Shown here: piece by piece, positions 2,305 through 64,000 of the stretch | Position numbering within the stretch: position 1 is the stretch's first letter | Layout: every line of letters begins with the position of its first letter | NCBI GenBank assembly: GCA_051294905.1 | Contig: CM119371.1 | Coordinates: 33,420,001-33,484,000, forward strand | Length of the DNA stretch: 64,000 nt | Source of the DNA: Botryllus schlosseri | Lineage: Eukaryota | Direction of reading: 5' to 3' | Notes under the pieces: model-generated | What the model was told of the DNA's origin: nothing | Database searches by the model: none | The model's input: the letters and a program-made list of their open reading frames with translations, nothing else | Position numbers and translations under genes: made by a program

Positions 2305-2706
2305 TTGCCTACATCCTCGGGGTCTGCTTGATTCGTTTGACCCCCATTCGCGTCAGCGGGACTTCCTCGCTCGGCACGAATTAGACTGGTGTCAGCAGGA
2401 CTTCCTTGCTCGGCACCTAAAGAGTCTCTTTGATTTCTTGTAACGCCAGCGGTGTTAACCGACCAAACGTTTGCGTCAGCGGCCCTTGCCAACTCGACGC
2501 TCATATTGCCTACATCATTGGAGCCACCTTGATTAGTGTGAACTCCATTTGCGTCAGCGGGACTTCCTCGCTCGGCGCGATTTTGGCAGGTGTCAGCAGG
2601 CCTTCCTTGCTCGGCACCCAAAGAGTCTCTCTTTTCTATTGTAACGTCAGCGGTGTTTACCGACCCAACGTTTGCGTCAGCAGCCCTTGCCACTTCGACG
2701 CCAGCG
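2305..2706 (-). repeat. In-frame 201-bp (67-aa) tandem duplication within the pro-X ORF
   Basis: ARAADANV.SVNTA.VT...RDSLGAEQG.PADT...RAERGSPADANG occurs twice, and the DNA motif gtcagcgggacttcctcgctcggc recurs at ~2352 and ~2553. Confidence 0.9.
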
Positions 2707-3300
2707 CCAGCGGCCCTTGCCGTCTCGACGCTCTGCTGTTCTGCAGCTTTCACCAACCCATCCTTGGTCACAGTTTTGCAAGGACTGTTTCCAATTCTGG
2801 TTCCGTCCTTTTTATCGCGTAAAGTCATACTATGTAGTGTTGCCAATGACAATTCTTCATTATCAGTAGACGGAGTTTTAAATTCAGTATCTATACTCGG
2901 TAATTGTTGTACTTTGTCAATCCATTTTAGCCCCACAATATTAAGAGGAACTCCCTTGCCAGTTGCAAATGGAACTTGCAGTCCGTCAAGAGGTACTATT
3001 ACTAGGGAGTCGACTCGGGACGAACCTCCTATTCCGCTCAATTTCATATCAAGTGGCTGTCATTCAGCCCAGCTTTTCGGATATTTATTTTTTACTACGC
3101 TCTTCATAATCAAATTGGGAATACTGCCAGTATCGGCTAGAAATTTAGTGTCTGTGTTTGTATCCACTAGGTATAGAAGTTGCCCACCGAATAATTCCGC
3201 GAAATCCGGTTGTAGGGGTTTGTCCGGTGAATCAAGGAATGTAAACAAAGGTAACGAGGCATTATGTACAGTTTTAACATGTTGGGGTAATATTGTGTCA

Positions 3301-3344
3301 GGGAGCTGATTCACCGGATCAATCAGCGCCCCCAACCGTTTTTT
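3301..3344 (-). promoter_or_regulatory. -1 programmed ribosomal frameshift signal (slippery heptamer A AAA AAC + downstream hairpin)
   Basis: Minus strand reads TCA AAA AAC GGT TGG GGG CGC TGA in the gag frame. A -1 shift enters the protease frame (R-L-G-A-L-I-D-P). A few nt downstream, GGGG-C-GCTGATT/GATCCGGTG/AATCAGC-TCCC can form a stem-loop. Confidence 0.85.
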
Positions 3345-6076
3345 GAGACGCGTAAACCTTGTTCTAATTCCTCATCTGTCCAGTAAGAGGCGGCGTATTG
3401 ACGCGGCTCTTGTCTATATGAAGGCGCAATCCAGTTTACCTGGCTGTTATTTAGAATTGGATTCGCGGGTGGTCCCCTGGGACCCCATTGGCCCCTATCG
3501 TGCCAGTGGGTTCTATCTCTGTTTTTAGGTATACTATCATAATAGGCCTCACATAGATTCGTTCTTTCTGCCAACGGGGGAGAGCCATGGGATATGAGAT
3601 ACCGATCAAGGTCTGAAATCGTCAATAATCCATTGCTAGTAAGGAACGGACGCCAGTTGCGTTCAGCGGATTCCTTAATACGCTGCGGCACCGGTCGTAC
3701 ACGTTTACGGATTATCCATCCCAATTCGCTATCTCTAGTGAGTACCACATTGTTTAGCCAAAGGATAAACTTGGCAACGCAATTCCGGGATTGATGCCCG
3801 GGGGCCTTACAGTAATAACATACCGAAAGGGCCTGGCCCTGGGAGGGATTCAAATATAAACCTAATGGGGCAAAGATATTAGCATTGCCAAGGAAATAGT
3901 ACCTCTCACCTTGGCTTTCCGCGATGTGGCGAGCCTCCTGACTGTTCGACGGAGTAATTTGCGTATTATCTGGTCCCACTCCAGAATCTTGTGTTCCTTC
4001 TGTTCGTGGGCTTCTTTGGCTTGAAGATCCTGGTTGTTGACCGGATTGTGCTGACCCTGAAATATGTACAGTCTGGATATCGGGTTCAGCAGAGGCGCCT
4101 TGTCTAGTAGTTTGCGCTCGTCTGCCTGGCCCGATACCACTCGATACGTTAGTAGGACGCCGGTTTAATCTTGCGTATCGAACAGGATTTCGGCGTAATT
4201 GTGTGACCTGTGCTGTATTCACAAGAGGCCGTGAAGGGACCACTCTGGGAGGTTGAGGTGGCGTTGCCTCGAATTCGGGCGGAGGATGGGAAAAAGATAA
4301 GGTGGGCTCCGGAAGTACTCCCAGTTGTCCATTACCGTTAGGGTGAGTGGGATAGCTATGTATCACAGGATCAGCGGGATGTACATTATAGATATGTACA
4401 GGCAGCAAGGGCGACTTGTTCGTCTGAGTTCTTCGGGTTCTCCGAGTCGTCGGGCTCGATTCCTGTTCATCTTGGAATTCCGAGTTCCAGAACAGTTGGA
4501 GTTCTTCCGCGACTTCCCGCCAGGTGTTTTCTTCCCACCCCCGTATAATCAACCTGAGTGCTTCCGGCAGCCGCTGTCTCAAATTGCGGAAAAGTCGCAG
4601 TCCGTCCGGGTTGTCCAAAATTAGGTCATCCATATCTATCTCCAGTTGTTTCAGAGCACTGTTAAGTAGAGGTAGGGGTTCGTCTTCCCAATGATACTTT
4701 CTTCGGAAGTTGTTGACAATTCTCTCATTATTCACAATTCCTTGTGGGTTGGAAAGTGACAGCGACCTCATAACCGATTCCCAGCTGGCGTTTCCCGAGT
4801 TTGTGTTGAAGAAGTTTCCAAGTTGATCAGCTTGTTTGTAACGCCCAGCATTCTCTAATTTCTTCTGCATTGCATTCATCAATATTATATCAGCGTCAGT
4901 ATTACCTTCACCGTGGTGAATTCGTCTCATCGTGTTCTCCATCCATTTAAGGAGAGGCATATCGCCCGGATCCAACATCAACTGTATCATTTCCTTTTCG
5001 GACTGAAATCTAGCAGGTATAGTTAGCGCTGGGTTTACCATTACCTCCATCGGTCGCGAGCGCGGCTGAATTGGGCGGTCATCATATTCCATTTGTTGTA
5101 CAAGTCTCTGCAGTCGGGATGTCGTCGCCCCTTCAGAATCAGAATCTTCTGGTTGAGCCTCCGAGTCTCCTTCGTCATACTCCTCCCCTTCTCCACGGAA
5201 AATGACGTGTTTAGCGTTGCTCGGCGATTTTCTTGCCCGACTACTTCGTGTCCCAACATCACCCAACTTGTCAATGTCCCGCCGCTGACCCTTCGCATCT
5301 CGAGGTCTCGACACCAGTTTCTGGAATGAGGAGAGATGTTCACTGTCCAATTCAGAGTCTGTTTCGCGTTCCATTCTCATCGGTCCTCCTGCCGCCACTC
5401 CCGTAGGTGTCCAATACGCCATGGGCGTGTTAGCACCACCTTTGGTCTTCATCGCAGGATGCATGCTCCCTTTTGTTCTAAAATTCGGAGCCATCAGTGA
5501 ACGGGCAACCGGGGTCGGACGAGGTGGATCATCAGTCTTCACGTCTGGGTGCGTATGGTAGACCGCCGTTACTGTATGACAATCTAACCCCTTTTTCACG
5601 GCCAAGGTGGGCATAGGCTGAGTCTTCCTGACCGTCTGGATGGCTGGTGGATCGTAGGCCGGTGGAGGTGCTGTGGGCATGACAGCCAGGGCGTGAGAAG
5701 GATGTGGTTTCTCTCCTACCGCTTGCGTATGGGCGTTACCCAACTTGAATTCTGTCTGCAAAATTTCGTTTAATACGTCTGTGGAAACCTTTCCAGTAAT
5801 TTTTGAAGTGGCGTCACAAACGGCCTTCAGGTCAGCTTGAGCCCGCCGGACGTCTTTTCTTGCTTTTTCCAGCTCCTTCACTGCCTCAGGCAGGGTCGTT
5901 TTGACCTCCTTTAGGACTCTTGTCTGGTCGGCCACATCTTTAGCAAGTTGCCTCTCTTGGTCTTGCACATCTTCGTGACGCTTTTGGGTATATTTAAGCA
6001 GTCGGATTCCCTGCTTTAGCTCCGCCGATGCCTCCGTTGGTTTCTTCTTTTTAAATAGTTTCAAGATTCTTCGCAT
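3323..6076 (-). CDS. gag: Gag-like polyprotein, 917 aa
   Basis: Intact ATG ORF. It has a basic N-terminus (MRRILKLFKKKK), a coiled-coil-like region at about aa 15-95, PTAPPPAY at aa 134-141, a helical capsid-like segment (...LRQRLPEALRLII...TWREVAEEL) and a CX2CX4HX4C knuckle CYYCKAPGHQSRNC (3779-3820). It ends at a frameshift site followed by a protease. Confidence 0.88.
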   Translation of the reverse strand: MRRILKLFKKKKPTEASAELKQGIRLLKYTQKRHEDVQDQERQLAKDVADQTRVLKEVKTTLPEAVKELEKARKDVRRAQADLKAVCDATSKITGKVSTDVLNEILQTEFKLGNAHTQAVGEKPHPSHALAVMPTAPPPAYDPPAIQTVRKTQPMPTLAVKKGLDCHTVTAVYHTHPDVKTDDPPRPTPVARSLMAPNFRTKGSMHPAMKTKGGANTPMAYWTPTGVAAGGPMRMERETDSELDSEHLSSFQKLVSRPRDAKGQRRDIDKLGDVGTRSSRARKSPSNAKHVIFRGEGEEYDEGDSEAQPEDSDSEGATTSRLQRLVQQMEYDDRPIQPRSRPMEVMVNPALTIPARFQSEKEMIQLMLDPGDMPLLKWMENTMRRIHHGEGNTDADIILMNAMQKKLENAGRYKQADQLGNFFNTNSGNASWESVMRSLSLSNPQGIVNNERIVNNFRRKYHWEDEPLPLLNSALKQLEIDMDDLILDNPDGLRLFRNLRQRLPEALRLIIRGWEENTWREVAEELQLFWNSEFQDEQESSPTTRRTRRTQTNKSPLLPVHIYNVHPADPVIHSYPTHPNGNGQLGVLPEPTLSFSHPPPEFEATPPQPPRVVPSRPLVNTAQVTQLRRNPVRYARLNRRPTNVSSGIGPGRRAQTTRQGASAEPDIQTVHISGSAQSGQQPGSSSQRSPRTEGTQDSGVGPDNTQITPSNSQEARHIAESQGERYYFLGNANIFAPLGLYLNPSQGQALSVCYYCKAPGHQSRNCVAKFILWLNNVVLTRDSELGWIIRKRVRPVPQRIKESAERNWRPFLTSNGLLTISDLDRYLISHGSPPLAERTNLCEAYYDSIPKNRDRTHWHDRGQWGPRGPPANPILNNSQVNWIAPSYRQEPRQYAASYWTDEELEQGLRVSKNGWGR

Positions 6077-6097: not shown

Positions 6098-6544
6098 TTA
6101 TAGACCCGTAGTAGAGTTTTCGAGGTCCCGCTTTACGCTGGAGATAGTCGGGTCGTCCAAGGTAGGCCGTATTGTTGTTCCGAGTGATGAGTTGTGGTCG
6201 TTAGTCTCGAACTCCGGAAGTTTAGAAAGCGAGTCTTTAGTAATGATAAATTGGCGTCCTGCAGATATGTTTTGCGAGCCAATAAGAGTTGGGAACGGTG
6301 TTGTAACTCCGTTGTTAGGTCTTCCGTTTCCAATCGGAACTGTAGTTGGAGAAAACCCCGGTACTAAATGTAAATATATTGATGATAACGTGACTAACAA
6401 TGAAATTACAGACGCAATCAGGGCCACGACCAATACTGTTTTAACGATGGTCGTCTTTGAACACATTGATAGGTCCACGTGCTGCACTGGAAGTAATAAT
6501 CCCAGCTTGGTGCCTCCAGTACGTTTATAGTGCAGCTCCAGCAA
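6098..6544 (-). CDS. Small putative single-pass membrane accessory protein upstream of gag
   Basis: Hydrophobic stretch VLVVALIASVISLLVTLSSIYL followed by a Thr/Ser/Pro-rich tail with N-x-S/T sequons (NIS, NSS, NST). Its stop lies 21 nt before the gag ATG. The true start is uncertain (track start is TTG; internal ATG at MCSK). Confidence 0.5.
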   Translation of the reverse strand: MLELHYKRTGGTKLGLLLPVQHVDLSMCSKTTIVKTVLVVALIASVISLLVTLSSIYLHLVPGFSPTTVPIGNGRPNNGVTTPFPTLIGSQNISAGRQFIITKDSLSKLPEFETNDHNSSLGTTIRPTLDDPTISSVKRDLENSTTGL

Positions 6545-47936: not shown

Positions 47937-49710
47937 CTCTAAATTAGCATTGCAAGCGGTATATACGCGCTTCTTGAAAATGCAATTCAAGCCAAGCCAA
48001 TTTCAAAGGGATATTTGTTCAATTTTCATCGTGCCTAGAATTGTATCGGAGATGGTATTATTGTTAGTGACAACTGATGTTCATGTGACACGAGTCATGG
48101 CTTGACTCTAGCAACCTTTTCTGAATAACCTGACTCGGGACACTGCAATAAAAGGATTTGACTTGACTCGACTGCATATTATTGGATGATTCATGAGTTG
48201 GGCACAAATATTCCAGTCATCGTTGAAGTTATTAACCGTTCTGCCTCGTAACACCTCTTGAACAATATTTCTACTATAGTCCTTTATTTACTGGATTCGG
48301 ATATCAATTATGTTTCGGATGTGGTAAGTCCAATTTCTGAGAATCCGAATCCACCCGACAGCTCGAGTCTCTGAGGAACTATACGTCCATATCCAAACAA
48401 TCTAAACCAAAATCCCCGAAAATCGGAAGAATGACGTCCAGCTTCAAGACTGGGCTTTTGATTACGTAATAATCATAGTACGACAATATCAGTTCACTGC
48501 GGCTTGTGCGAGCTACAATTAGTGGTGCGTTAAGTTAAACAAGTTTTTACAATTGCGTTTCAACTACAACAGTTACACTGCCTTGAATTTCCAATTAGGT
48601 TTATTTGAATCATTCCAAGTCAAAAAAATTGACAATTATTCACGATTTTCATTCTTACTCATCCGGATTTTTCATTCGCGCCATTCGCACCACCATTCGC
48701 ACTGCAATTATATTTCATTCGCCCATTTGCGAACCGTCGCGCAGGTTGAAAAGCACTGCATTATACACTACACGCATGTCAAGCTTTAGCATCGATTTTG
48801 CAAGTGCCGCGGCGACGAATAAAACAGACTGACGGCGGATGTAATAAAATGTAAAAGCCATATATGAATTGCGCCAGCACTTGGAAATGCTGGCCAGACC
48901 AATTTCCTGAACAGCGTGTACTCGACGATAAACAATTTTCGAAGTGATATTTCTACATTGCGTTATGCCTACAACTTTTTGAGGTTACTTTTATCCCACA
49001 GATTATAACCAGAGAAGCATATTAAAATCAAAGATGTCTTCGGGAATCCGCCCTGATTGCCTTTAAATTATCATCGCTAACGGTATATACGCGCTACCCG
49101 TAAATGCAATTCAAGAAATAAGCTAATTTCAATGTGATATTTGTATGTACAATGTATATCAGGGGCGACCAACCTTTTCGCCGAAAGACCACGTAGGATT
49201 TCCGAACCATTGCGCGGGCCACCTGAATGTTGATGACCCTTTTTAGTCGTCCGACAGGACCGAACCGGATTAGGTAACTAATCAAAACGCATCAAAATCG
49301 ATATCAATTACGTCATAAAAAGTCAGTATGTATTTAAGTCATAACAGTATGTATTTAAGTTAATGAACGAATTCGGTCAATATTAACGTCACTTTCATAT
49401 ATTGCGGGTCACCTCTGTATGCCGCTCGGCTCAATTGGGAAAGAGAGGGCTACTCGAAAATATCGAAGATTCCGGCGTAGATGCGTCAATAACTCTTTGC
49501 AATGCTTTCAGACGATCTTTCTGTAAGCGCGCATGCAAAGTGGGATGTTGGACGACACGTTTGTTTGTTTGTTTTGGGGTATTCATGGTGTTTGTCGACT
49601 ACTATGGTCATTTACACCAGGCCGATATTCTTCTTATTTTCCGTAACTGCCGACTTATAGCACGGCCCACCAGTAGTTATTATGATCGCTCGTGGTGTGC
49701 CTGGGGCGCT

Positions 49711-50080
49711 TATGGCGGGGTGGCGAGCTAACGAGAAACCGGGGGTGGCGAACTAACGTTTTCGTCTTATGGCGGGGTGGCGAACTAACGTTTTCGTCTT
49801 ATGGCGGGGTGGCGAACTAACGTTAGTAGTATATATGATCGCTCGTGACTTGGTGTTTTTAACATGGGGTAGTATAGGGCCCGCTGGTGAGGTGCCTGAA
49901 AACCCGGGGTGATGACCCCACCCTTTTGACCCCCCCTTCCGCTGGTGAGGTGCCATGTGTTCTTATGGGTGCGGCGATGACCTGCCATGGCTTGTTTGGT
50001 AGTGAACTAACGTTGTGGATATAGGCTGCGGCGATGACCTGCCATAGCTTGTTTGGTAGTGAACTAACGTTGTGGATATA
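49711..50080. repeat. Subterminal repeats of the left arm: 32-bp GGCGGGGTGGCGAACTAACG units and 57-bp units (mirrored at ~62893-63322)
   Basis: 32-bp period (49771, 49803). The 57-bp unit occurs twice in the left arm and three times in the right. Confidence 0.9.
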
Positions 50081-50254
50081 GACCGTGGCGTCTTTTCGCA
50101 CTGTGCCTATTGATTCCTACGTAACCTGAATATCACGCCGACTTTCAGATCGGATTATTCGCACCTTCCATACCGCTGTTTCGCGCCTACAGAATAGTCT
50201 GCTGTTCACATTCGCAACAAGAATCACAAGTATACACATTTACACATTCGTTTA

Positions 50255-50800
50255 TTACTCTGAAATCAAACTCTTCACAAAAGCACGTACAATCGTATCA
50301 TTCACTTTTTTATCATCGCCAAAATTATCCAAGTATTCCTCGGCGGAAAACCCTTGAGCTCTTTTTATCAAGAATGCGATAGCATGATCTCCACACACAT
50401 CCGAATTTTTACTCTGTAGGTGTTTCCCAGTCACAGAAAATTCATCCGGCTCCAGGAATTCGATTATCTGAGGTTTTAGCGGTCCGAAACCTAGCGAATC
50501 ATGAAAATGAGTATCGTCATCTCTGTACACCCAGTGAGACCGAGGCAAACTCGACTCGTCGTAATTAATGGTGATAGCGAATTTTCCGCTAATTGGTTTA
50601 TTTGGTAACTGGTCTATCGGATAAGTCCCTAGATATAGACTTTGTGTGTCAGGGTGGTTATAGAGAATATCATTAATCTCAGACAGAGCCGGCGTAGACG
50701 GCGATTCCAATACCAACAACATGCTAACACTCCAAATAGGTGTGAAATAGTTTGCAAAACCCCGCAATCGCTGACAACATAATGTCTCGGTCATACCCAT
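50255..50800 (-). CDS. Adenain-like (Polinton-type) cysteine protease, left-arm copy
   Basis: YLGTYPIDQLP, ITINYDES..PRSHWV, FHDSLG and HLQSKNSDVCG place His, Asp, Gln and Cys in adenain order. The stop overlaps AATAAA. The real start is probably downstream of the track ATG. Confidence 0.88.
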   Translation of the reverse strand: MGMTETLCCQRLRGFANYFTPIWSVSMLLVLESPSTPALSEINDILYNHPDTQSLYLGTYPIDQLPNKPISGKFAITINYDESSLPRSHWVYRDDDTHFHDSLGFGPLKPQIIEFLEPDEFSVTGKHLQSKNSDVCGDHAIAFLIKRAQGFSAEEYLDNFGDDKKVNDTIVRAFVKSLISE

Positions 50801-51494
50801 CTTTTGCGACTTGGCGCTACAGGCATCGATCGCTCAAACGTTGAAATTTTCGTAAGCAGTTTGTCACAGAACTTGATTTTACTCGTAAGATTTAATAAGT
50901 AACGAATATTAGACCGTCAGTGTCGGTAACTTGAATAACGATAAATTGTCACTTATTTCTGCTCTAACCCTAATCCTTTGTGAAGTGAACGCTTATTCAA
51001 AAAGGTGTGAAATAATTTTCAAATCCTACGACCGCTCACAGGGTAATGCTTCAGACATAGTAATCGCTTACAAGGTAATATTTCCGCAATAAGTTTGTCA
51101 CAGAGACGGTGATTCGAAAACCAACAATTTGGCACTTGTCCGTGATCGCTATATGTTTTGACACTTCGGAACAGTGGTTGACTTTAGTTGCGTGAAACAA
51201 ATCATGCGAATATTCAAGCAATGTGTCAATTTGTCAACTTGAAATGAAACTCACTACACAGCTCAAGTTGATTCGTATTTGAATGTTTTGATCCGGTACA
51301 AGCCTAATCCTTTGAGAAATCCATTTATCGCGATCAGTTGATTCGACTGTAACCTGAATATTACCGTCGCCGACTTTCAGCCACATTGAATTATTCGCAC
51401 ATTCCGCGCCGCTGTTTCACGCCTATAGAATCAATACCAAGTAACTAAACAAGAATCAAGAATCACAAGTATGCACATACAATAATTGTATTTA

Positions 51495-51744
51495 TTACTG
51501 AGAAATCAAACGCCTAACAAAAACACGCAACTTAGCATTTGCCAACTCTAGCATTACCAAAAAATCTAGGTATTGTTGATTGAAAACCCTTGAGTCCTTA
51601 TTATCAAAAATGTTATAGGGTGGCGTCGGAATCCATTCGCGAGATGTTCTATAGGTAAATTGAGGTAATCCAAAATGAAATATCTCGACTTTGACATAGT
51701 CTAAATTGAAATAGATTGACAAACATGACTACCAACTTTCCCGC
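51495..51744 (-). pseudogene. Decayed paralogue of the adenain-like protease, left arm
   Basis: Mirror image of 61230-61479. Confidence 0.75.
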
Positions 51745-54700
51745 AGCTCCATTTCAATATTATACGCACATTGATTTGAAACAAGTAATGATACCTTACA
51801 ACTCTATTCGCGATCCGGCTTTTCGTTTGTCAAAGCGACATTTTAACATCTCACCATACTCAAAAGAATTATTCACAACATCACCAAGTGTTAAAAAATC
51901 TAGTTTTCACTTACTTGATTATATCACTGCAACTCACAAATTTGAATTAATTCATTCTGGTTGTATTCGTATGATCGGTCTTTTTTATTCAATTGTAAAG
52001 GTCGGTGCTATTCTGAAGACAAAGTATTTACTAATCGGCGCATATACGATTCGACTTGGACATATTATATTTTGAGTATACGAGATTTGAATGTCTGAAT
52101 AATAACCGAGAAATAATTTATCACAATAAAATCCGTACATTACAGCGTAAAAGATGTTGGAATGTCAGCAACTCTGTACGGTCAACCCGATCAACTCGTC
52201 ATGATCATTCCTGAAATCGACACAAACATGACCACTGACTTGAGTTAACCACAAAACAACATCAAGTTTTAAATCCACTTGTAGCTTACGACTTATTCGA
52301 ATGCTGGTTATGTTTTGTTGTAATTGAGTGTACGGAAATAGTATTACGTCTCGACATCTTACCATCTTACCGTATTCAAAGAGTCAACCACGAAAACATT
52401 ACCAAGTAAATCCGTTTGTAACTTACCCAACCAACTCAACAGTATCCTTATGAAAAGTAGACAAGACTACGCGAGTAATCACCACAATCCGAAATCCATA
52501 GCAAGTTCAGTTGTATTCATAGTCCGCCAACTCGTATTTTTTTATTCAGCTGTAAAAGTCGTTACTATTCTGTAACCTAAAGTAATTACTACTCGGCGCG
52601 CACAACTTGAGATTAACATAATATGTTTGAGTATACGAGGTTTGAAAGTTTGACCAACGTAGTTGAGAATCCATTTCTTACAATCGAACACAGGCGTTAT
52701 ATCGAAAATTATAATGATGTAAACATAAGGTTCGACACATTGATTTGACATATGAGATTTTGTAATGCTCGACCATGACTTGATTATTAAATTATTTTGA
52801 ATCGCCTGAAATAATTGTCGTCATCTAACCAGACTACTGAAAGTCGTTGCCATCACAAAAACAATTTGCATGACGTTTATTAAATGTGTCCTATAGTTAG
52901 AATTATTTGTGCAACACACACGAGCAGAGAAATTGGAAATTTTCCCATTGCCATTCGTCAAAGTAAATGTCGTCACAATACTCAGTCACTAAAAGACCAT
53001 ATACTTGTATGTGATTGAATCACCAGCAATTAACTCGCTAAATCAAATCGTAAGGTAATTTCACGCACTCATCGGGTATTAAACAACGTCGCTTTATCGG
53101 TGTGGGTCGTTTTTTCTAAATACAAATCATATCTGTCCAGTAGAAAACAATTTTCACGTACTTGGGTAATGAAACCAGTGTACAATATCAACACAAGATA
53201 TTTTCGTGACACAAAAAATAATCAACTTACTCGATATTCTCGTAAAACGAAACTGTACACAGGTTTCATGTCTTTTGTATGACACGGAATTAATACCGAT
53301 CGAAGTAGCCGGGTTGGAAATGATTTTTAAACAAACACACTCTACGTGGTTAACATTCTCATCGATTCTATTGTGATCAATGTATACTATATGTATTCTG
53401 GATTCATTTCGATATGACTAAACAATAAACATGCAACCTCGACAGATACGAATTGTCACACACTCAACTAATATCATACCAAATAGTTATTTACAACAAC
53501 CAAGACACAGAAAATTTGTTTTGGCCGTTTCGATTTTATTACTGGAGGTACTCATCACTTCGCTTAATACAATCTAGATTTAAACTCCATCGAACCTTTG
53601 GTGTCTATCGTTTTGCTGGATACGAATTATGTTAGTCTAACAGTAAACAATTTTCACAATCTTGGGTTATGAATTCAATGTGTTGGCGGTCATTCATTAT
53701 TTTGTTTGTATCAACTAGTTTCTTTGTAGGGTATGAATGAGCACCCTCCCACAACTCTTACAAAAGTACGAAGGATATTTACATCACACAAAGTAGTCGA
53801 CTTTACTTCATATCCTCACACTACGAAACCAAATGGTTGTTTAGACTCTACAAACTTTTTTACACGAATGGTCACACATCTACACATCTAAATATTCAAA
53901 TAATCCAACACACAACTATAGTACTTACAGAAATATCATAGTTCTTGTAACAAAGGTGTTTATCGTAATTCCTACACAGTCATGATAACCGTCCGAGTTT
54001 GACTTTTAGAAAATATTATATCGATACATCTTTCAAAAACAAAACCATGGTCACTGCTTGAGAGACCTGCCAATGATATCACAATAATACAGTTACTTCC
54101 ACAAAAAAATATGTATTCGACTTACTTTCCACAAATCTAACACACAAAACAATTTACTTTGCTAACGAAAAGTGCTGAGTCATCATATGATTGTCCTCAC
54201 AACAATACAACTAAAACATACTATCATACAAAATGGTCGTTATAGTTTGCACCCCAACGGTACATCGTAAAAGTAACAAGTTTCAAGAATCGAGTTATTG
54301 AAAAACGTGAAAGTGTTTCTCCTGTGCCAAGTCGTTATGTTGACGAAAGTGTATATTGTAATATCATGATCGATTTGCATTCGTTGGTCACAAACTGTCA
54401 CTATACTCTAAATAATTATTTTTCACTGAAACACAAAAGCATACTTGTCACCATTCGTTTCATCAAGTACGAGTTCAAGAAACTTACTTACTACGACATG
54501 AATTGTTATTTTTATGTTGTGTAAATAGGTAATCGTTATTTTAGTAACACTTTATCAATGTCATCGAGTTGTGCGAAAAGATTTACATGTGGTCTTGTGG
54601 TTTTAATCGAAGCACACATCATGATCTAATGTAGAGTCGTCTCTATTGTACAACAACTCGGTAATCGAAATGCATGCATTAACATTTAAACAGCGATCGT

Positions 54701-54844
54701 GTTTCGTCACGCGAAAAATATGTTCACTGTCACAATACTCTGCACAAGACGTACAAATCCTTTTCACCCTCATAATAGTATACCAACGACCACCGACGAC
54801 AACGTTTAACAATACCAACGACACTGGAAACACTGAACCCACGA

Positions 54845-55385
54845 CACTTACCCAAGTAAAAATACATTTTCCTTTGGCTACATGACACTCACCAGAGTAA
54901 AAAATATCATTATCACCTGGAGATCCGCCGTTACCCGAACAACAAAACCATTTTCCTTTGGAGATCTGTCGTTTACCAAGTGTAACAATACATTTTCACA
55001 TGGCGATCCATCGTTTACCCTGAGCAACAAACCTTTTTCACTTGGAAATATATTTTTTCCCTGGGTAACAAACCTTTTTCACTTGGAAATCTATTTTTCC
55101 CTGAGCAACAAACCATTTTCACTTGGAAATATATTTTTTCCCTGGGTAACAAACCTTTTTCACTTGGAAATCTATTTTTCCCTGAGCAACAAACCATTTT
55201 CACTTGGAAATATATTTTTTCCCTGAGCAACAAACCATTTTCACTTGGTGGGTCGTCGTTTACCTGAGTAAATATATCATTTTCCTTTGGATATCCGGCG
55301 TTTACCCAGTGTAACAATACATTCTCACTTGACCATCTAACTTTTCCTAGAGTAACAATACCGTTTCCACTTGGAAATCTGACAA
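54845..55385. repeat. ~40-42 bp minisatellite (ttttcacttggaaat...ccctg.g.aacaaacc) within the left arm
   Basis: cacttgg recurs every ~40 bp from 55041 to 55242, with more diverged units on both sides. Confidence 0.88.
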
Positions 55386-56392
55386 CCACACGCAGCAATT
55401 TGGTATTTGTTGTATTGGCGAAAGTTTGAAATGATTACAACGAACAGTGACGGAAATATACACGACAACCGGTTTCAGAGTATACTCGCGTCGGTAGCAA
55501 CACATCTATATCATCGGTTAACCACATGAAATAACAATATACTCTTGTATATCGAAATGTATGCTTTGGAAAATGACGAACATTGTGTGTGTGTGTGTGT
55601 GTGTCCGGGTTCGTACTTTGGATTTTCCAGAGTCAAAGAGTCTGAATAAAACACCGCCTCGACTTCGGTAAATGTTTGGCACGCAGATAACGGTGGTCGG
55701 AAATCGTGGAATTTATGTTTCCATCGGGCTAACAACTCCAGGTTACTTGTGATTTTTCTCACACGTGTTTACTATGTTGTGTCGCTCTTTATTGATCAAT
55801 ACATAACACGCCATTAAGTTTGAAATCGGAAACCCCGAGAAAGTATTAACCGGATCCGGATATCAACTCTGAATCGATAAACCATATTCAAGTAAACATA
55901 CCACAACCAGTGTTTCCATGAAAATAACAAGACATCACACAAATCAAGTATACTTCGCGATTATTTGCCCACACAAGAATCCCAGAAGCGAGGTGTATGA
56001 CGTTACATACATCATGGATAACATCGTGTCTAGCATTACAAACATCACGGGTGACAAATTCGTCTTCTCAAGTCTCGTCATGCACCGACTCTGTACATTC
56101 AATGTGGGGTAGACGACTTGGAGACAGACAAACAGACATATTTGACCGTAACATGGCCTTAGCATGAGAATTCGTTACACGGGTACAACGTCGCAGTCAG
56201 ACATCTTTAACAGTGATTCCGCGTATGGAAATCTTAATTCGATTGTGGTTTTGTAATGTAATCCGGGTTACTGTGTTTCTGCGGTGTGAAGACTAAGTTC
56301 GTGTTGATCCCCCCTGCAAGAGCGTGATGTCTATTTCACACCTAGAGCAATTATAAAACGCATCTTCGAAACTTTTGGTCTAGTTCATCCGC

Positions 56393-56746
56393 TTGTATTT
56401 CGAAACGGACCACCACCGCAAGACAATTGAAAAAACTTTGTCGTTACCTGATCAACATACACGAGTAAGGATGAGACTACGCGTAACTGTCCATAGATTC
56501 CTCTGGCCCCACACCGTGGTTTTACGACACAGACAAGATGCAGCAGTGGAAATATTGAAAATGAAAAACGATACCTTGGTTACATTTGATTTGGATTTTA
56601 CACCTGATGAACCATACACTCGATTGATACATTGGGATGACGACTCTATCGTCGAGATTGAGGGAAAAGAAATGTACAGATTTGTTGGTGTCGTGGATAT
56701 TCAACGAAAATCGGGGTACATGATAGTACTTGGTTCGCATATATGA
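56393..56746 (+). CDS. Uncharacterised ORF (117 aa, possibly 5'-disrupted) in the unique spacer
   Basis: Protein-like composition and a TTG start only. Its stop directly abuts a convergent minus-strand stop at 56747-56749. Confidence 0.4.
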   Translation: MYFETDHHRKTIEKTLSLPDQHTRVRMRLRVTVHRFLWPHTVVLRHRQDAAVEILKMKNDTLVTFDLDFTPDEPYTRLIHWDDDSIVEIEGKEMYRFVGVVDIQRKSGYMIVLGSHI

Positions 56747-57588
56747 CTATGAATGTATCGGTATGCATAATGCTATGTTCACTGTATCGATATCATCAAT
56801 GGTATTTGAACGCATAACCATGTTACGGTCAAATATGTCTGTTTGTCTGTCTCCAAGTCGTCTACCCCACATTGAATGTACAGAGTCGGTGCATGACGAG
56901 ACTTGAGAAGACGAATTTGTCACCCGTGATGTTTGTAATGCTAGACACGATGTTATCCATGATGTATGTAACGTCATACACCTCGCTTCTGGGATTCTTG
57001 TGTGGGCAAATAATCGCGAAGTATACTTGATTTGTGTGATGTCTTGTTATTTTCATGGAAACACTGGTTGTGGTATGTTTACTTGAATATGGTTTATCGA
57101 TTCAGAGTTGATATCCGGATCCGGTTAATACTTTCTCGGGGTTTCCGATTTCAAACTTAATGGCGTGTTATGTATTGATCAATAAAGAGCGACACAACAT
57201 AGTAAACACGTGTGAGAAAAATCACAAGTAACCTGGAGTTGTTAGCCCGATGGAAACATAAATTCCACGATTTCCGACCACCGTTATCTGCGTGCCAAAC
57301 ATTTACCGAAGTCGAGGCGGTGTTTTATTCAGACTCTTTGACTCTGGAAAATCCAAAGTACGAACCCGGACACACACACACACACACACAATGTTCGTCA
57401 TTTTCCAAAGCATACATTTCGATATACAAGAGTATATTGTTATTTCATGTGGTTAACCGATGATATAGATGTGTTGCTACCGACGCGAGTATACTCTGAA
57501 ACCGGTTGTCGTGTATATTTCCGTCACTGTTCGTTGTAATCATTTCAAACTTTCGCCAATACAACAAATACCAAATTGCTGCGTGTGG

Positions 57589-58129
57589 TTGTCAGATTTC
57601 CAAGTGGAAACGGTATTGTTACTCTAGGAAAAGTTAGATGGTCAAGTGAGAATGTATTGTTACACTGGGTAAACGCCAGATATCCAAAGGAAAATGATAT
57701 ATTTACTCAGGTAAACGACGACCCACCAAGTGAAAATGGTTTGTTGCTCAGGGAAAAAATATATTTCCAAGTGAAAATGGTTTGTTGCTCAGGGAAAAAT
57801 AGATTTCCAAGTGAAAAAGGTTTGTTACCCAGGGAAAAAATATATTTCCAAGTGAAAATGGTTTGTTGCTCAGGGAAAAATAGATTTCCAAGTGAAAAAG
57901 GTTTGTTACCCAGGGAAAAAATATATTTCCAAGTGAAAAAGGTTTGTTGCTCAGGGTAAACGATGGATCGCCATGTGAAAATGTATTGTTACACTTGGTA
58001 AACGACAGATCTCCAAAGGAAAATGGTTTTGTTGTTCGGGTAACGGCGGATCTCCAGGTGATAATGATATTTTTTACTCTGGTGAGTGTCATGTAGCCAA
58101 AGGAAAATGTATTTTTACTTGGGTAAGTG
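57589..58129. repeat. ~40-42 bp minisatellite, right-arm mirror copy
   Basis: Reverse complement of 54845-55385. Confidence 0.88.
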
Positions 58130-61100
58130 TCGTGGGTTCAGTGTTTCCAGTGTCGTTGGTATTGTTAAACGTTGTCGTCGGTGGTCGTTGGTATACTATT
58201 ATGAGGGTGAAAAGGATTTGTACGTCTTGTGCAGAGTATTGTGACAGTGAACATATTTTTCGCGTGACGAAACACGATCGCTGTTTAAATGTTAATGCAT
58301 GCATTTCGATTACCGAGTTGTTGTACAATAGAGACGACTCTACATTAGATCATGATGTGTGCTTCGATTAAAACCACAAGACCACATGTAAATCTTTTCG
58401 CACAACTCGATGACATTGATAAAGTGTTACTAAAATAACGATTACCTATTTACACAACATAAAAATAACAATTCATGTCGTAGTAAGTAAGTTTCTTGAA
58501 CTCGTACTTGATGAAACGAATGGTGACAAGTATGCTTTTGTGTTTCAGTGAAAAATAATTATTTAGAGTATAGTGACAGTTTGTGACCAACGAATGCAAA
58601 TCGATCATGATATTACAATATACACTTTCGTCAACATAACGACTTGGCACAGGAGAAACACTTTCACGTTTTTCAATAACTCGATTCTTGAAACTTGTTA
58701 CTTTTACGATGTACCGTTGGGGTGCAAACTATAACGACCATTTTGTATGATAGTATGTTTTAGTTGTATTGTTGTGAGGACAATCATATGATGACTCAGC
58801 ACTTTTCGTTAGCAAAGTAAATTGTTTTGTGTGTTAGATTTGTGGAAAGTAAGTCGAATACATATTTTTTTGTGGAAGTAACTGTATTATTGTGATATCA
58901 TTGGCAGGTCTCTCAAGCAGTGACCATGGTTTTGTTTTTGAAAGATGTATCGATATAATATTTTCTAAAAGTCAAACTCGGACGGTTATCATGACTGTGT
59001 AGGAATTACGATAAACACCTTTGTTACAAGAACTATGATATTTCTGTAAGTACTATAGTTGTGTGTTGGATTATTTGAATATTTAGATGTGTAGATGTGT
59101 GACCATTCGTGTAAAAAAGTTTGTAGAGTCTAAACAACCATTTGGTTTCGTAGTGTGAGGATATGAAGTAAAGTCGACTACTTTGTGTGATGTAAATATC
59201 CTTCGTACTTTTGTAAGAGTTGTGGGAGGGTGCTCATTCATACCCTACAAAGAAACTAGTTGATACAAACAAAATAATGAATGACCGCCAACACATTGAA
59301 TTCATAACCCAAGATTGTGAAAATTGTTTACTGTTAGACTAACATAATTCGTATCCAGCAAAACGATAGACACCAAAGGTTCGATGGAGTTTAAATCTAG
59401 ATTGTATTAAGCGAAGTGATGAGTACCTCCAGTAATAAAATCGAAACGGCCAAAACAAATTTTCTGTGTCTTGGTTGTTGTAAATAACTATTTGGTATGA
59501 TATTAGTTGAGTGTGTGACAATTCGTATCTGTCGAGGTTGCATGTTTATTGTTTAGTCATATCGAAATGAATCCAGAATACATATAGTATACATTGATCA
59601 CAATAGAATCGATGAGAATGTTAACCACGTAGAGTGTGTTTGTTTAAAAATCATTTCCAACCCGGCTACTTCGATCGGTATTAATTCCGTGTCATACAAA
59701 AGACATGAAACCTGTGTACAGTTTCGTTTTACGAGAATATCGAGTAAGTTGATTATTTTTTGTGTCACGAAAATATCTTGTGTTGATATTGTACACTGGT
59801 TTCATTACCCAAGTACGTGAAAATTGTTTTCTACTGGACAGATATGATTTGTATTTAGAAAAAACGACCCACACCGATAAAGCGACGTTGTTTAATACCC
59901 GATGAGTGCGTGAAATTACCTTACGATTTGATTTAGCGAGTTAATTGCTGGTGATTCAATCACATACAAGTATATGGTCTTTTAGTGACTGAGTATTGTG
60001 ACGACATTTACTTTGACGAATGGCAATGGGAAAATTTCCAATTTCTCTGCTCGTGTGTGTTGCACAAATAATTCTAACTATAGGACACATTTAATAAACG
60101 TCATGCAAATTGTTTTTGTGATGGCAACGACTTTCAGTAGTCTGGTTAGATGACGACAATTATTTCAGGCGATTCAAAATAATTTAATAATCAAGTCATG
60201 GTCGAGCATTACAAAATCTCATATGTCAAATCAATGTGTCGAACCTTATGTTTACATCATTATAATTTTCGATATAACGCCTGTGTTCGATTGTAAGAAA
60301 TGGATTCTCAACTACGTTGGTCAAACTTTCAAACCTCGTATACTCAAACATATTATGTTAATCTCAAGTTGTGCGCGCCGAGTAGTAATTACTTTAGGTT
60401 ACAGAATAGTAACGACTTTTACAGCTGAATAAAAAAATACGAGTTGGCGGACTATGAATACAACTGAACTTGCTATGGATTTCGGATTGTGGTGATTACT
60501 CGCGTAGTCTTGTCTACTTTTCATAAGGATACTGTTGAGTTGGTTGGGTAAGTTACAAACGGATTTACTTGGTAATGTTTTCGTGGTTGACTCTTTGAAT
60601 ACGGTAAGATGGTAAGATGTCGAGACGTAATACTATTTCCGTACACTCAATTACAACAAAACATAACCAGCATTCGAATAAGTCGTAAGCTACAAGTGGA
60701 TTTAAAACTTGATGTTGTTTTGTGGTTAACTCAAGTCAGTGGTCATGTTTGTGTCGATTTCAGGAATGATCATGACGAGTTGATCGGGTTGACCGTACAG
60801 AGTTGCTGACATTCCAACATCTTTTACGCTGTAATGTACGGATTTTATTGTGATAAATTATTTCTCGGTTATTATTCAGACATTCAAATCTCGTATACTC
60901 AAAATATAATATGTCCAAGTCGAATCGTATATGCGCCGATTAGTAAATACTTTGTCTTCAGAATAGCACCGACCTTTACAATTGAATAAAAAAGACCGAT
61001 CATACGAATACAACCAGAATGAATTAATTCAAATTTGTGAGTTGCAGTGATATAATCAAGTAAGTGAAAACTAGATTTTTTAACACTTGGTGATGTTGTG

Positions 61101-61229
61101 AATAATTCTTTTGAGTATGGTGAGATGTTAAAATGTCGCTTTGACAAACGAAAAGCCGGATCGCGAATAGAGTTGTAAGGTATCATTACTTGTTTCAAAT
61201 CAATGTGCGTATAATATTGAAATGGAGCT

Positions 61230-61479
61230 GCGGGAAAGTTGGTAGTCATGTTTGTCAATCTATTTCAATTTAGACTATGTCAAAGTCGAGATATTTCATT
61301 TTGGATTACCTCAATTTACCTATAGAACATCTCGCGAATGGATTCCGACGCCACCCTATAACATTTTTGATAATAAGGACTCAAGGGTTTTCAATCAACA
61401 ATACCTAGATTTTTTGGTAATGCTAGAGTTGGCAAATGCTAAGTTGCGTGTTTTTGTTAGGCGTTTGATTTCTCAGTAA
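61230..61479 (+). pseudogene. Decayed paralogue of the adenain-like protease, right arm
   Basis: ITFLIIRTQGFS/QQYLDF...ANAKLRVFVRRLISQ* aligns with IAFLIKRAQGFSAEEYLDNF...VNDTIVRAFVKSLISE*. The ~150 bp downstream (61480-61635) also matches 62720-62865. Confidence 0.75.
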
Positions 61480-62173
61480 TAAATACAATTATTGTATGTG
61501 CATACTTGTGATTCTTGATTCTTGTTTAGTTACTTGGTATTGATTCTATAGGCGTGAAACAGCGGCGCGGAATGTGCGAATAATTCAATGTGGCTGAAAG
61601 TCGGCGACGGTAATATTCAGGTTACAGTCGAATCAACTGATCGCGATAAATGGATTTCTCAAAGGATTAGGCTTGTACCGGATCAAAACATTCAAATACG
61701 AATCAACTTGAGCTGTGTAGTGAGTTTCATTTCAAGTTGACAAATTGACACATTGCTTGAATATTCGCATGATTTGTTTCACGCAACTAAAGTCAACCAC
61801 TGTTCCGAAGTGTCAAAACATATAGCGATCACGGACAAGTGCCAAATTGTTGGTTTTCGAATCACCGTCTCTGTGACAAACTTATTGCGGAAATATTACC
61901 TTGTAAGCGATTACTATGTCTGAAGCATTACCCTGTGAGCGGTCGTAGGATTTGAAAATTATTTCACACCTTTTTGAATAAGCGTTCACTTCACAAAGGA
62001 TTAGGGTTAGAGCAGAAATAAGTGACAATTTATCGTTATTCAAGTTACCGACACTGACGGTCTAATATTCGTTACTTATTAAATCTTACGAGTAAAATCA
62101 AGTTCTGTGACAAACTGCTTACGAAAATTTCAACGTTTGAGCGATCGATGCCTGTAGCGCCAAGTCGCAAAAG

Positions 62174-62719
62174 ATGGGTATGACCGAGACATTATGTTGT
62201 CAGCGATTGCGGGGTTTTGCAAACTATTTCACACCTATTTGGAGTGTTAGCATGTTGTTGGTATTGGAATCGCCGTCTACGCCGGCTCTGTCTGAGATTA
62301 ATGATATTCTCTATAACCACCCTGACACACAAAGTCTATATCTAGGGACTTATCCGATAGACCAGTTACCAAATAAACCAATTAGCGGAAAATTCGCTAT
62401 CACCATTAATTACGACGAGTCGAGTTTGCCTCGGTCTCACTGGGTGTACAGAGATGACGATACTCATTTTCATGATTCGCTAGGTTTCGGACCGCTAAAA
62501 CCTCAGATAATCGAATTCCTGGAGCCGGATGAATTTTCTGTGACTGGGAAACACCTACAGAGTAAAAATTCGGATGTGTGTGGAGATCATGCTATCGCAT
62601 TCTTGATAAAAAGAGCTCAAGGGTTTTCCGCCGAGGAATACTTGGATAATTTTGGCGATGATAAAAAAGTGAATGATACGATTGTACGTGCTTTTGTGAA
62701 GAGTTTGATTTCAGAGTAA
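62174..62719 (+). CDS. Adenain-like (Polinton-type) cysteine protease, right-arm copy
   Basis: Translation identical to 50255-50800. Confidence 0.88.
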   Translation: MGMTETLCCQRLRGFANYFTPIWSVSMLLVLESPSTPALSEINDILYNHPDTQSLYLGTYPIDQLPNKPISGKFAITINYDESSLPRSHWVYRDDDTHFHDSLGFGPLKPQIIEFLEPDEFSVTGKHLQSKNSDVCGDHAIAFLIKRAQGFSAEEYLDNFGDDKKVNDTIVRAFVKSLISE

Positions 62720-64000
62720 TAAACGAATGTGTAAATGTGTATACTTGTGATTCTTGTTGCGAATGTGAACAGCAGACTATTCTGTAGGCGCGAAACAGCG
62801 GTATGGAAGGTGCGAATAATCCGATCTGAAAGTCGGCGTGATATTCAGGTTACGTAGGAATCAATAGGCACAGTGCGAAAAGACGCCACGGTCTATATCC
62901 ACAACGTTAGTTCACTACCAAACAAGCTATGGCAGGTCATCGCCGCAGCCTATATCCACAACGTTAGTTCACTACCAAACAAGCCATGGCAGGTCATCGC
63001 CGCAGCCTATATCCACAACGTTAGTTCACTACCAAACAAGCCATGGCAGGTCATCGCCGCAGCCATAAGAACACATGGCACCTCACCAGCGGAAGGGGGG
63101 GGGTCAAAAGGGTGGGGTCATCACCCCGGGTTTTCAGGCACCTCACCAGCGGGCCCTATACTACCCCATGTTAAAAACACCAAGTCACGAGCGATCATAT
63201 ATACTACTAACGTTAGTTCGCCACCCCGCCATAAGACGAAAACGTTAGTTCGCCACCCCGCCATAAGACGAAAACGTTAGTTCGCCACCCCCGGTTTCTC
63301 GTTAGCTCGCCACCCCGCCATAAGCGCCCCAGGCACACCACGAGCGATCATAATAACTACTCCCACCTCTAGGCTTTTGTAAGACACCGCTGACGCGGAT
63401 GAGGTGGCGAGGAGGAGCCTAGGTAAACCTCCAACACTTGGGTATCGGAATTCGGAAGTCGACCTCGGTCGGACTCGAACCCACGCCCATTGGTGTTGAA
63501 GCCGCGGATTATACCACTGCGCTATCTCGCCACTGGACGACACGTTCGTTCATAATTGCGAATATAGTCAGACTCAATTCTATAAACTCGGCCCATTTTA
63601 AATTTTCAGGAAGGGGGACCAATACTGAAGCAAGCAATCGCGCGAAGTGCTAAGAAAAATGTCAAGTCTACTAAATCTGCCACGAAATATTCTACTTTAT
63701 CATCATATACAGAGATCTACAACAATTGTGACTGGCTCCTGGCTACGACAATGAGTCGAAACTGATAATTTAGTTATCAACATCCGAAATATTGTGGTCA
63801 GGCTAATCAAATTTTTGGTTTGTTTCGGAAGTTCACAATAGATCACCCCGGTAATTTATTTTTGATAATATCACTAATATATAATAGACTAATTTCAAGA
63901 ATGACCTTGCGGGACACTCAAAACCTTCTCGCGGGCCACGGGTTGGCCAACTCTGATGTATAACGTGCCTAGAATTGTATCGATGATTTTATATTATTGA

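Follow-up and report, generated by a model that had tools for sequence, protein, structure and literature searches.

Mavericks, also called Polintons, are thought to be viruses that double as transposons. To our knowledge, almost nothing is known about how they replicate or about elements that parasitise them. In vertebrates, Mavericks end in an (AGT)2//(ACT)2 or (AG)3//(CT)3 motif, are flanked by a 6-bp target site duplication (TSD), carry terminal inverted repeats (TIRs) of 46-1447 bp and have an intact length of 12.7-24.6 kb (PMC8097293). Here we examine a relative of these elements in Botryllus schlosseri. It lies in a 64,000-nucleotide stretch of contig CM119371.1 (assembly GCA_051294905.1, positions 33,420,001 to 33,484,000), which is referred to below as the window. 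The element is a 13,690-bp palindrome with Maverick-type ends, and it is likely to be a typical member of a non-autonomous family that uses the replication and integration machinery of autonomous Mavericks residing in the same genome.

Two other described systems are close to it in one respect or another. In butterfly polintons, TIRs of ~2 kb duplicate hexon and adenain, giving two copies per insertion (bioRxiv 10.1101/2025.02.07.637071). Transpovirons are about 7 kb long, have short TIRs and are parasites of giant viruses (PMC5499653). A palindromic non-autonomous Polinton family is undescribed in the full-text literature searched, which has subscription journals and Repbase reports outside its scope, and the phrase 'non-autonomous polinton' is used there in a single paper, for Tlr1.

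Layout of the element and size of its family

Arm alignment, blastn and a repeat search all delimit the same palindromic, non-autonomous unit, 95% of which is made up of inverted repeats of 6.5 kb (Table 1). In a global alignment the two arms are identical at 6483 of 6544 columns. The repeat search and blastn are concordant with this: the former returns two arms of 6190 nt that are 100% identical and a further inverted pair of 265 nt at the termini, on either side of a 661-nt spacer. The arms differ by exactly two substitutions (49969 G vs 63005 C; 55296 C vs 57678 T), one 2-bp run-length change and one additional 57-bp unit in the right arm. Their divergence is 0.03%. The element ends in AGTAGTTATTATGATCGCTCG and its complement (AGTAGT...ACTACT), with CCCACC on both flanks. 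The initial annotation of this locus had given the same arm and spacer lengths, the same differences, and Polinton-type termini and TSD, all of which are confirmed; it had also advised a search for further palindromic copies with other TSDs, and such copies were found.

The genome searched comprises about 495 Mb in 219 contigs, and all counts from genome searches are lower bounds drawn from the best-scored candidates only. Allowing up to two mismatches, the 21-nt terminus has 544 matches (274 forward and 270 reverse), while the reversed-pattern control has none. Among the first 100 places listed, 62 make up 31 plus/minus pairs within 20 kb. These pairs span 9.7-20.0 kb, and 19 of the 31 measure 13.0-14.9 kb; the copy in the window has exactly the median length, 13,690 bp.

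Ten other pairs were fetched. The choice was non-random: three had zero mismatches and seven were others, with three long pairs and one short pair taken on purpose. In eight of the ten, the inverted arms measure 3.9-6.4 kb and are almost identical to each other (98.4-99.95%). The exceptions are C7a, with a 332-bp TIR, and C1c, with a 2-kb TIR and no TSD; C1c is probably not one element. Where both ends are in hand, nine of ten copies, the window copy included, have perfect 6-bp TSDs that differ from one another. Identity between copies is only 72-91% and patchy. First-look candidates number 1082 for the centre, 4114 for the inner arm and 1234 for the central open reading frame (ORF), and the arm matches sit as inverted pairs flanking the centre matches.

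The family is large, with several hundred to about a thousand copies. Because the palindromic layout is common to eight of the ten other fetched copies at 72-91% identity, it has been inherited, and the element in the window is an ordinary member of a remarkable family, not a singular accident.

Several variants of the family were encountered. C7a (C7:8261353-8275699, 14.3 kb) shares the 21-bp terminus, is flanked by a perfect TSD (CTTGTG) and carries triplicated motifs of the Maverick kind, but lacks both the central ORF and any ORF of at least 150 aa; it is a non-palindromic, non-coding relative of similar length. Some palindromic copies contain later insertions: an arm of C7b (C7:7839750-7859735) has gained ~6.3 kb, C3a ~1.1 kb and the centre of C2a ~3.5 kb. 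These interrupted copies hold more than 99.6% arm identity on either side of the insertion. At C12:7182032-7182688 and 7193218-7193874, and within C16:1582182-1597394, centres or arm segments occur two to three times in the same orientation, ~4-11 kb apart and with equal scores, and may be local duplications or rearranged family multimers. In runs labelled as a second organism, 25-30% of sampled 31-mers of the centre and inner arms are present; another species may harbour the family or a close relative of it.

Table 1. Features of the element and its insertion site (positions within the window)
Feature	Position	Strand	Remarks
Whole element	49672..63361		13,690 bp
Host repeat, left part	49559..49671	.	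right part about 63362-63535; very high read depth
Left TSD copy	49666..49671	.	CCCACC; single-copy in empty-site reads and uninterrupted host-repeat paralogues
Right TSD copy	63362..63367	.	CCCACC; flanks the element end
Left arm	49672..56156	+	6485 bp; repeat search and global arm-to-arm alignment
Outer terminal module	49672..49825	+	21-bp terminus from AGTAGT, then GGTGGCGAACTAACG-type motif repeats with a 32-bp period; mirror 63208-63361
Inner terminal module, now internal	49826..49985	+	starts AGTAGTATATATGATCGCTCG; alignable to the true termini of C11 and C13; mirror copy in the right arm
57-bp tandem repeat	49970..50081	+	two units in the left arm; three in the right arm, about 62893-63064
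Adenain-like (Peptidase_C5-like) ORF remnant	50255..50833	-	192-codon open frame
41/81-bp tandem array	55014..55248	+	inner arm; mirror 57726-57960
Unique centre	56157..56817	+	661 bp; family-conserved, best other copies 98% identical
Central ORF	56471..56746	+	91 codons (56471-56743), then TGA stop
Right arm	56818..63361	-	6544 bp; reverse complement of the left arm; arm-to-arm alignment
Adenain-like ORF remnant, mirror copy	62141..62716	+	right arm

The insertion site

The element interrupts a host repeat, and this allows the state before insertion to be reconstructed. Reads sampled from two raw RNA runs (about 6% and 3%) and a DNA run consisting of short contigs were placed on the left flank, left arm and centre. 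In the raw RNA runs 93 and 79 reads end at 49671, as do 37 and 5 contig records; these run on with 30 letters equal to window positions 63368-63397, directly past the second CCCACC. On C14 and C9, the matches to the left and right flanks are contiguous and overlap by exactly 6 bp, and these uninterrupted host repeats are paralogous empty sites. The 13,690 bp were inserted as a single piece, with duplication of 6 bp. Searches with the flanks of the host repeat gave 1721 and 3993 first-look candidates, and the interrupted copy lies about 1% from its nearest relatives (0/113 and 3-4/172 mismatches).

The host repeat is interspersed and short, at about 280 bp, and its candidates in the genome number thousands, many of them 97-100% identical. 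It is well covered by RNA reads, and its right part is tRNA-like by eye; ARAGORN/tRNA and Rfam scans of the window made no call, the host repeat included. Elsewhere in the window, the G+C content rises to 0.49-0.51 at positions 2001-6000, compared with about 0.38-0.43 in the rest.

Autonomous Mavericks and the shared ends

An autonomous Maverick of 16,149 bp was located in the same genome through single-copy relatives of the adenain-like ORF. It has 600-bp TIRs at 98.3% identity, a perfect 6-bp TSD (ACCATG) and the terminus AGTAGTTATATAGATCGGTCG, which is identical to that of the window element at 17 of 21 positions. It encodes an rve integrase (E 2.6e-16) with a Chromo domain (1.4e-8) and an AAA/A32-like ATPase, the latter by a weak match in Pfam and likewise in PHROGs. 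In its 1300-aa ORF, the C-terminal 743 aa have 442 relatives at E<=1e-5, many of them annotated with PF03175 or named DNA polymerase; phmmer searches of the PDB with both halves of this ORF gave chance-level matches only. The 16.1-kb element is a complete Maverick/Polinton.

Copies of the autonomous element are 96-97% identical to one another. Of the 113 integrase matches scored (from 1029 first-look candidates), 88 are 92-100% identical to the query; most keep intact frames. The matches fall into at least three clades with proteins of 359, 384 and 339 aa, which are 92-100%, 65-67% and 52-54% identical to the query, respectively. The Maverick population is large and apparently young. A hybrid in the C4 region, where a palindromic-arm-like stretch stands beside Maverick sequence, was considered as an intermediate and rejected; it is best read as nested insertions.

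The terminal ~170 nt can be aligned between the autonomous Maverick and all non-autonomous copies, and the outer terminal module of the window element is homologous to this stretch. The shared scaffold consists of the 21-bp end, followed by cttatgg, gaaaacc and agacccccc, and a 12-14-nt motif present three times; in the window it falls within 49672-49985 and 63048-63361. The sequence of the triplicated motif is lineage-specific, with GGTGGTGACTCGTA, GGCGAACTAACG, GCATGCTAACG, CGACCGGTGCC and GCACGGTGCC types, and by analogy these motifs may be like iterons or protein-binding sites of diversified specificity. One non-autonomous copy, C4a, carries the version of the autonomous Maverick (GGTGGTGACTCGTA type). 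The scaffold and the lineage-specific motifs point to cis-acting sequences that the Maverick machinery needs.

In the window element, a second terminus-like sequence lies at 49826-49846 (mirror 63187-63207), 154 bp inside each end, and can be aligned to the true ends of C11 and C13. The window lineage seems to have gained a new outer terminal module at both ends.

Arms and the adenain-like remnant

Sensitive blastn and tblastx confine the similarity between the arms and the autonomous element to ~1 kb per arm. It includes a 517-bp block at element positions 503-1013, which is 94.6% identical to the protease end of the autonomous Maverick. A decayed second copy of this block (71% identity) lies at element positions 1739-1947, and weak terminal motifs make up the rest. 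For the other ~5.4 kb of each arm, the same searches found no similarity to the autonomous Maverick; this part is AT-rich and without long ORFs. Tandem arrays span only about 430 bp of the 6485-bp arm.

In the autonomous element, the 94.6% block belongs to an ORF of 188 aa, of which it forms the 3' part. As a lead to its nature, the nearest neighbours of this ORF in the atlas are Peptidase_C5 (adenain) clusters of Preplasmiviricota (score 0.95, 209/256 features shared); sequence searches of Pfam, PHROGs and the PDB were silent (phmmer on the PDB gave chance-level matches only). In the remnant, the last 144 codons are 92-94% identical to the protease ORF and the His, Asp, Gln and Cys positions are retained, but the native start is gone and two residues beside the His motif are deleted. 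In other palindromic copies the block is absent, intact or interrupted by stops, and the adenain-like ORF therefore looks dispensable. Where it carries stops, both arms list the identical set of stops in seven of nine palindromic pairs. A Pfam search with nine ORFs of the element found nothing above the cut-off; weak matches to Galaxin repeat, TBPIP and TriTu were rejected as repeat-derived or short frames.

The central gene

In the same copies, the unique centre is conserved at 98%, against 94-96% for the neighbouring arm. Its 91-codon ORF is present in eight of the 11 copies in hand, at 58-92% identity to that of the window; seven copies are ungapped over 91 codons and C3a has one extra codon. 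Among 1234 candidates, all 150 scored matches keep an open frame of 97-120 codons, always in the middle of an inverted arm pair. The stop was checked in seven copies and is TGA in six and CGA in C7b. Between subfamilies, the ratio of non-synonymous to synonymous divergence (dN/dS; Nei-Gojobori, NG86) is 0.18-0.29, with dS itself close to saturation (about 1.0-1.4); ratios within subfamilies span 0 to 0.66. In the distant subfamily, the DNA around the ORF is no longer alignable. The central ORF encodes an orphan protein under purifying selection, and the centre as a whole is inherited and gene-bearing.

The stop of the ORF lies 54-118 bp from the nearest arm and its ATG 314-651 bp from the other (796 bp in C2a, which has an insertion on the stop side). 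No splice acceptor was found immediately 5' of the ATG in eight copies.

Pfam and PHROGs searches assigned the central protein to no family, just one relative, of 91 aa, was found when 1.84 billion representatives were searched with a profile, and the best score in the atlas search, 0.83, is at noise level. The AlphaFold model is all-beta with a predicted local distance difference test (pLDDT) score of 45.7 and is unusable. The autonomous element and a clade-2 fragment together have 103 ORFs that reach 60 aa; hmmsearch and HHalign comparisons with all of these gave a best probability of 14.6%, so the protein is related to none of them. Binding of the central protein to the triplicated terminal motif was considered and rejected in its simple form: the motif versions do not co-vary with the protein subfamilies, so the protein has no demonstrated link with the ends.

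RNA reads over the protease block carry the variants of other copies, and depth inside the element is at trace level. In a contig run guessed to be RNA, depth at the two ORF regions is relatively higher than in the arm interior. None of the listed sequence runs that contain the stretch is recorded as RNA.

Concerted evolution of the arms

The nearest sampled relative of the window copy, on C14, differs from it by 4.8% in the outer 2.4 kb, while in each of the two copies the own arms differ by just one or two substitutions and an indel. A four-way alignment of these arms has 125 variable columns, 119 of which (94 substitutions and 25 indel columns) are fixed in both arms of each copy; only six are differences from arm to arm. 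The two arms evolve in concert. The layout is older than the divergence of the family, so that changes must pass from one arm to the other.

Two routes are conceivable, and they are not mutually exclusive. In the first, to which we give about an even chance, one arm would template or repair the other during replication, by way of a snap-back hairpin of the displaced self-complementary strand. The second, which we hold to be somewhat less probable, is gene conversion from arm to arm in the chromosome. The replication route is favoured by the intact state of central ORFs and integrase genes despite several per cent of divergence between copies, by uniformly perfect TSDs, and by the youth of the interrupted host repeat, about 1% from its relatives. 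All of this suggests recent insertion, with divergence building up earlier, in lineages that replicate. Chromosomal gene conversion, in turn, is favoured by the finding that no other copy exceeds 98% identity to that in the window; the closest copies found reach 98% in the centre, 95-96% in the inner arm and 95.2% in the outer arm.

Alternative explanations

Long perfect palindromes are a recognised class of long-read artefact, and a palindrome can also result from two independent head-to-head insertions. Both readings are excluded here by the single 6-bp duplication and the paralogous empty sites, the former standing as one TSD pair round the whole unit and the latter being backed by empty-site reads from RNA and short DNA contigs. 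Moreover, the layout recurs, with different TSDs, in hundreds of copies spread over many chromosomes, and no termini lie at the centre; we attach next to no weight to either. The initial annotation had likewise read the element as non-autonomous and argued against a simple fold-back artefact, and both points are supported. It fares less well in its main proposal, a one-off copy-back or defective-interfering product, in which a template switch on a parental Polinton duplicated one end and the result then integrated. Such an event would agree with the Polinton-type ends and TSD, the nearly identical arms and an adenain-like ORF near each end, as in the autonomous element, but a singular product is contradicted by the recurrence of the layout in eight of ten other copies, which share only 72-91% identity with the window copy. 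Nor is the arm one end of a parental Polinton, as had been supposed, with just ~1 kb of its 6.5 kb Maverick-like and ~5.4 kb without similarity; the length is also that of the family median. The 661-bp spacer is not a by-product of the junction either: a conserved gene lies within it, under purifying selection and with the centre and ORF recognisable down to 58% amino-acid identity. A one-off event is thus very improbable, although copy-back possibly gave rise to the ancestor of the family or occurs in each round of replication. Far-fetched, if a little less so, is a foldback transposon of another DNA-transposon superfamily with ends that are Maverick-like by chance. Foldback elements are typified by very long inverted arms, tandem repeats within these and a scarcity of genes, and most of each arm lacks Maverick similarity; against this, the first ~170 nt align with the ends of the autonomous Maverick, the triplicated motif of C4a is nearly identical to that of the latter, the 6-bp TSD and AGTAGT/ACTACT ends are the same, the 517-bp block matches the Maverick protease end, and no transposase ORF is present in any of the 11 copies.

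The remaining alternative is the most serious. It accepts a mobile Maverick-dependent family and attributes the identity of the arms purely to chromosomal gene conversion after insertion, as in large genomic palindromes. Young insertions might be expected to leave near-identical sisters, yet the closest copies reach at most 98%, against a difference of 0.03% between the own arms of the window copy, and disabling stops are common to both arms. Against it, the central ORF is open in 150 of 150 scored matches and integrase frames are mostly intact in spite of several per cent divergence, which suggests that copies diverge while replicating, ahead of a recent insertion. TSDs are also perfect in nine of nine copies that have them, and the interrupted host repeat is close to its nearest relatives. 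On balance this account is a real contender, to which we give rather less than an even chance.

Proposed life cycle and open difficulties

We therefore prefer the reading in which the element belongs to a non-autonomous family that depends on co-resident Mavericks, and in which the Maverick integrase and protein-primed polymerase would act in trans on the shared ends. Repeated templating or repair of one arm by the other would keep the arms identical: the displaced self-complementary strand could snap back, whereupon mismatches in the hairpin would be corrected or the second arm copied back. The inherited design of the family is a near-complete palindrome with Maverick-type ends and two largely non-coding arms of ~6.2-6.5 kb each, around a unique centre (0.7-1 kb) that holds one conserved 91-codon gene.

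Lengths cluster at 13-15 kb, inside the range of Maverick genomes (the non-palindromic relative C7a has 14.3 kb and the helper candidate 16.1 kb), and the arms show no detectable coding constraint and a fast turnover. This suggests a constraint on packaging or replication size, with the arms acting as duplicated stuffer. It is tempting to speculate further and to regard the element as a satellite with two protein-primed origins that is packaged in helper capsids, regenerates one arm in each round and encodes a 91-residue protein that manipulates the helper; in its full form we consider this doubtful. If true, it would be the counterpart, in an animal genome, of virophage, transpoviron and phage-satellite systems.

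Several observations weigh against the preferred reading. Among the first 100 termini listed, 38 are unpaired. The window terminus differs at four of 21 positions from that of the autonomous clade whose ends were read, and its triplicated motif (GGCGAACTAACG type) is unlike that of this clade. For these two reasons this Maverick is a candidate helper of the window lineage, and the parent that the initial annotation expected has been found only in so far as an autonomous Maverick with homologous ends exists. The end of a second Maverick clade matches the window less well (14/21); it shares its first 11 bases with the terminus of the 16.1-kb Maverick and nine with that of the window. A search of the genome with the PF03175 profile gave no match, the control genomes being silent too, and the assignment of pPolB rests for this reason on the annotations of homologues. 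As to the central protein, it has no family, no usable structure model and no more than trace RNA coverage (neither raw RNA run exceeds about 1 read per bin across the ORF), and C1a and C2a, whose central proteins are identical, have different subterminal motifs.

Whether packaging by the helper depends on the size of the DNA can be tested with this family. Palindromes of 6 kb with short spacers are usually unstable in eukaryotic chromosomes, and the family raises the question of how they persist in such numbers.

Comparison with known systems

The element is not a Polinton in the strict sense. It has no long ORF, and tblastx and blastn find nothing beyond the protease end. The initial annotation had seen no pPolB, integrase, ATPase or capsid gene, and similarity to none of these was found in the element; of the module of capsid, packaging ATPase and adenain-type protease, only the adenain-like remnant in each arm is present. 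The listed integrase matches never lie inside the listed paired termini. What the element does have is the 6-bp TSD and the AGTAGT...ACTACT end motif with terminal inverted repeats that are typical of Mavericks, and, as in non-autonomous derivatives, the ends are homologous to those of autonomous copies and many sites are occupied, each with its own TSD of the same length as the helper's. Mobilisation would be in trans, by helper proteins; intact helper genes are abundant.

With foldback transposons (Drosophila FB, sea-urchin TU and Galileo), the family shares long inverted arms that form most of the element, internal tandem repeats, little coding sequence and a high copy number. It differs from them in its ends, in its TSDs, which are of 6 bp throughout compared with 9 bp or 7-8 bp in FB or P-type families, and in the link with a protein-primed, integrase-bearing helper. 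Moreover, the arms do not consist mainly of tandem subrepeats as in foldback elements, but of mostly unique sequence, and are several times longer.

The palindromic defective genomes of adenoviruses and helper-dependent adenovirus vectors provide a functional parallel, with protein-primed origins at the ends, inverted duplication and the need for a helper. In the vectors, duplication moves a short genome towards a packageable size. Adenovirus defective genomes, however, arise sporadically in culture and are not known to be inherited, whereas the family described here is old, diversified and integrated, and has a gene of its own. It is also set apart from copy-back and defective genomes by arms that are not a parental end and by an architecture and centre that are inherited.

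Transpovirons and virophage-type satellites are alike in being small linear elements with TIRs, dependence on a virus-like helper and few genes of their own (PMC5499653), although they have no gene in common with the window family.

The closest relationship is with Mavericks/Polintons themselves. The 16.1-kb element of the same genome shares with the window element the AGTAGT...ACTACT ends, the 6-bp TSD, TIRs, the subterminal scaffold and an adenain-like ORF next to the end. The length of the window element falls within the 12.7-24.6 kb of vertebrate Mavericks, but its repeats of 6.5 kb far exceed both the 46-1447 bp given for these (PMC8097293) and the 600 bp of the co-resident element. Unlike Mavericks, it lacks pPolB, integrase, ATPase and capsid, and its orphan central gene is absent from the autonomous element. 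The nearest published parallel found is that of butterfly polintons, in which, as in the window family, an adenain-like ORF lies within the repeat; these stay otherwise complete, with a large unique interior (bioRxiv 10.1101/2025.02.07.637071), whereas in the palindromic element all but 661 bp has become repeat and the core genes are gone.

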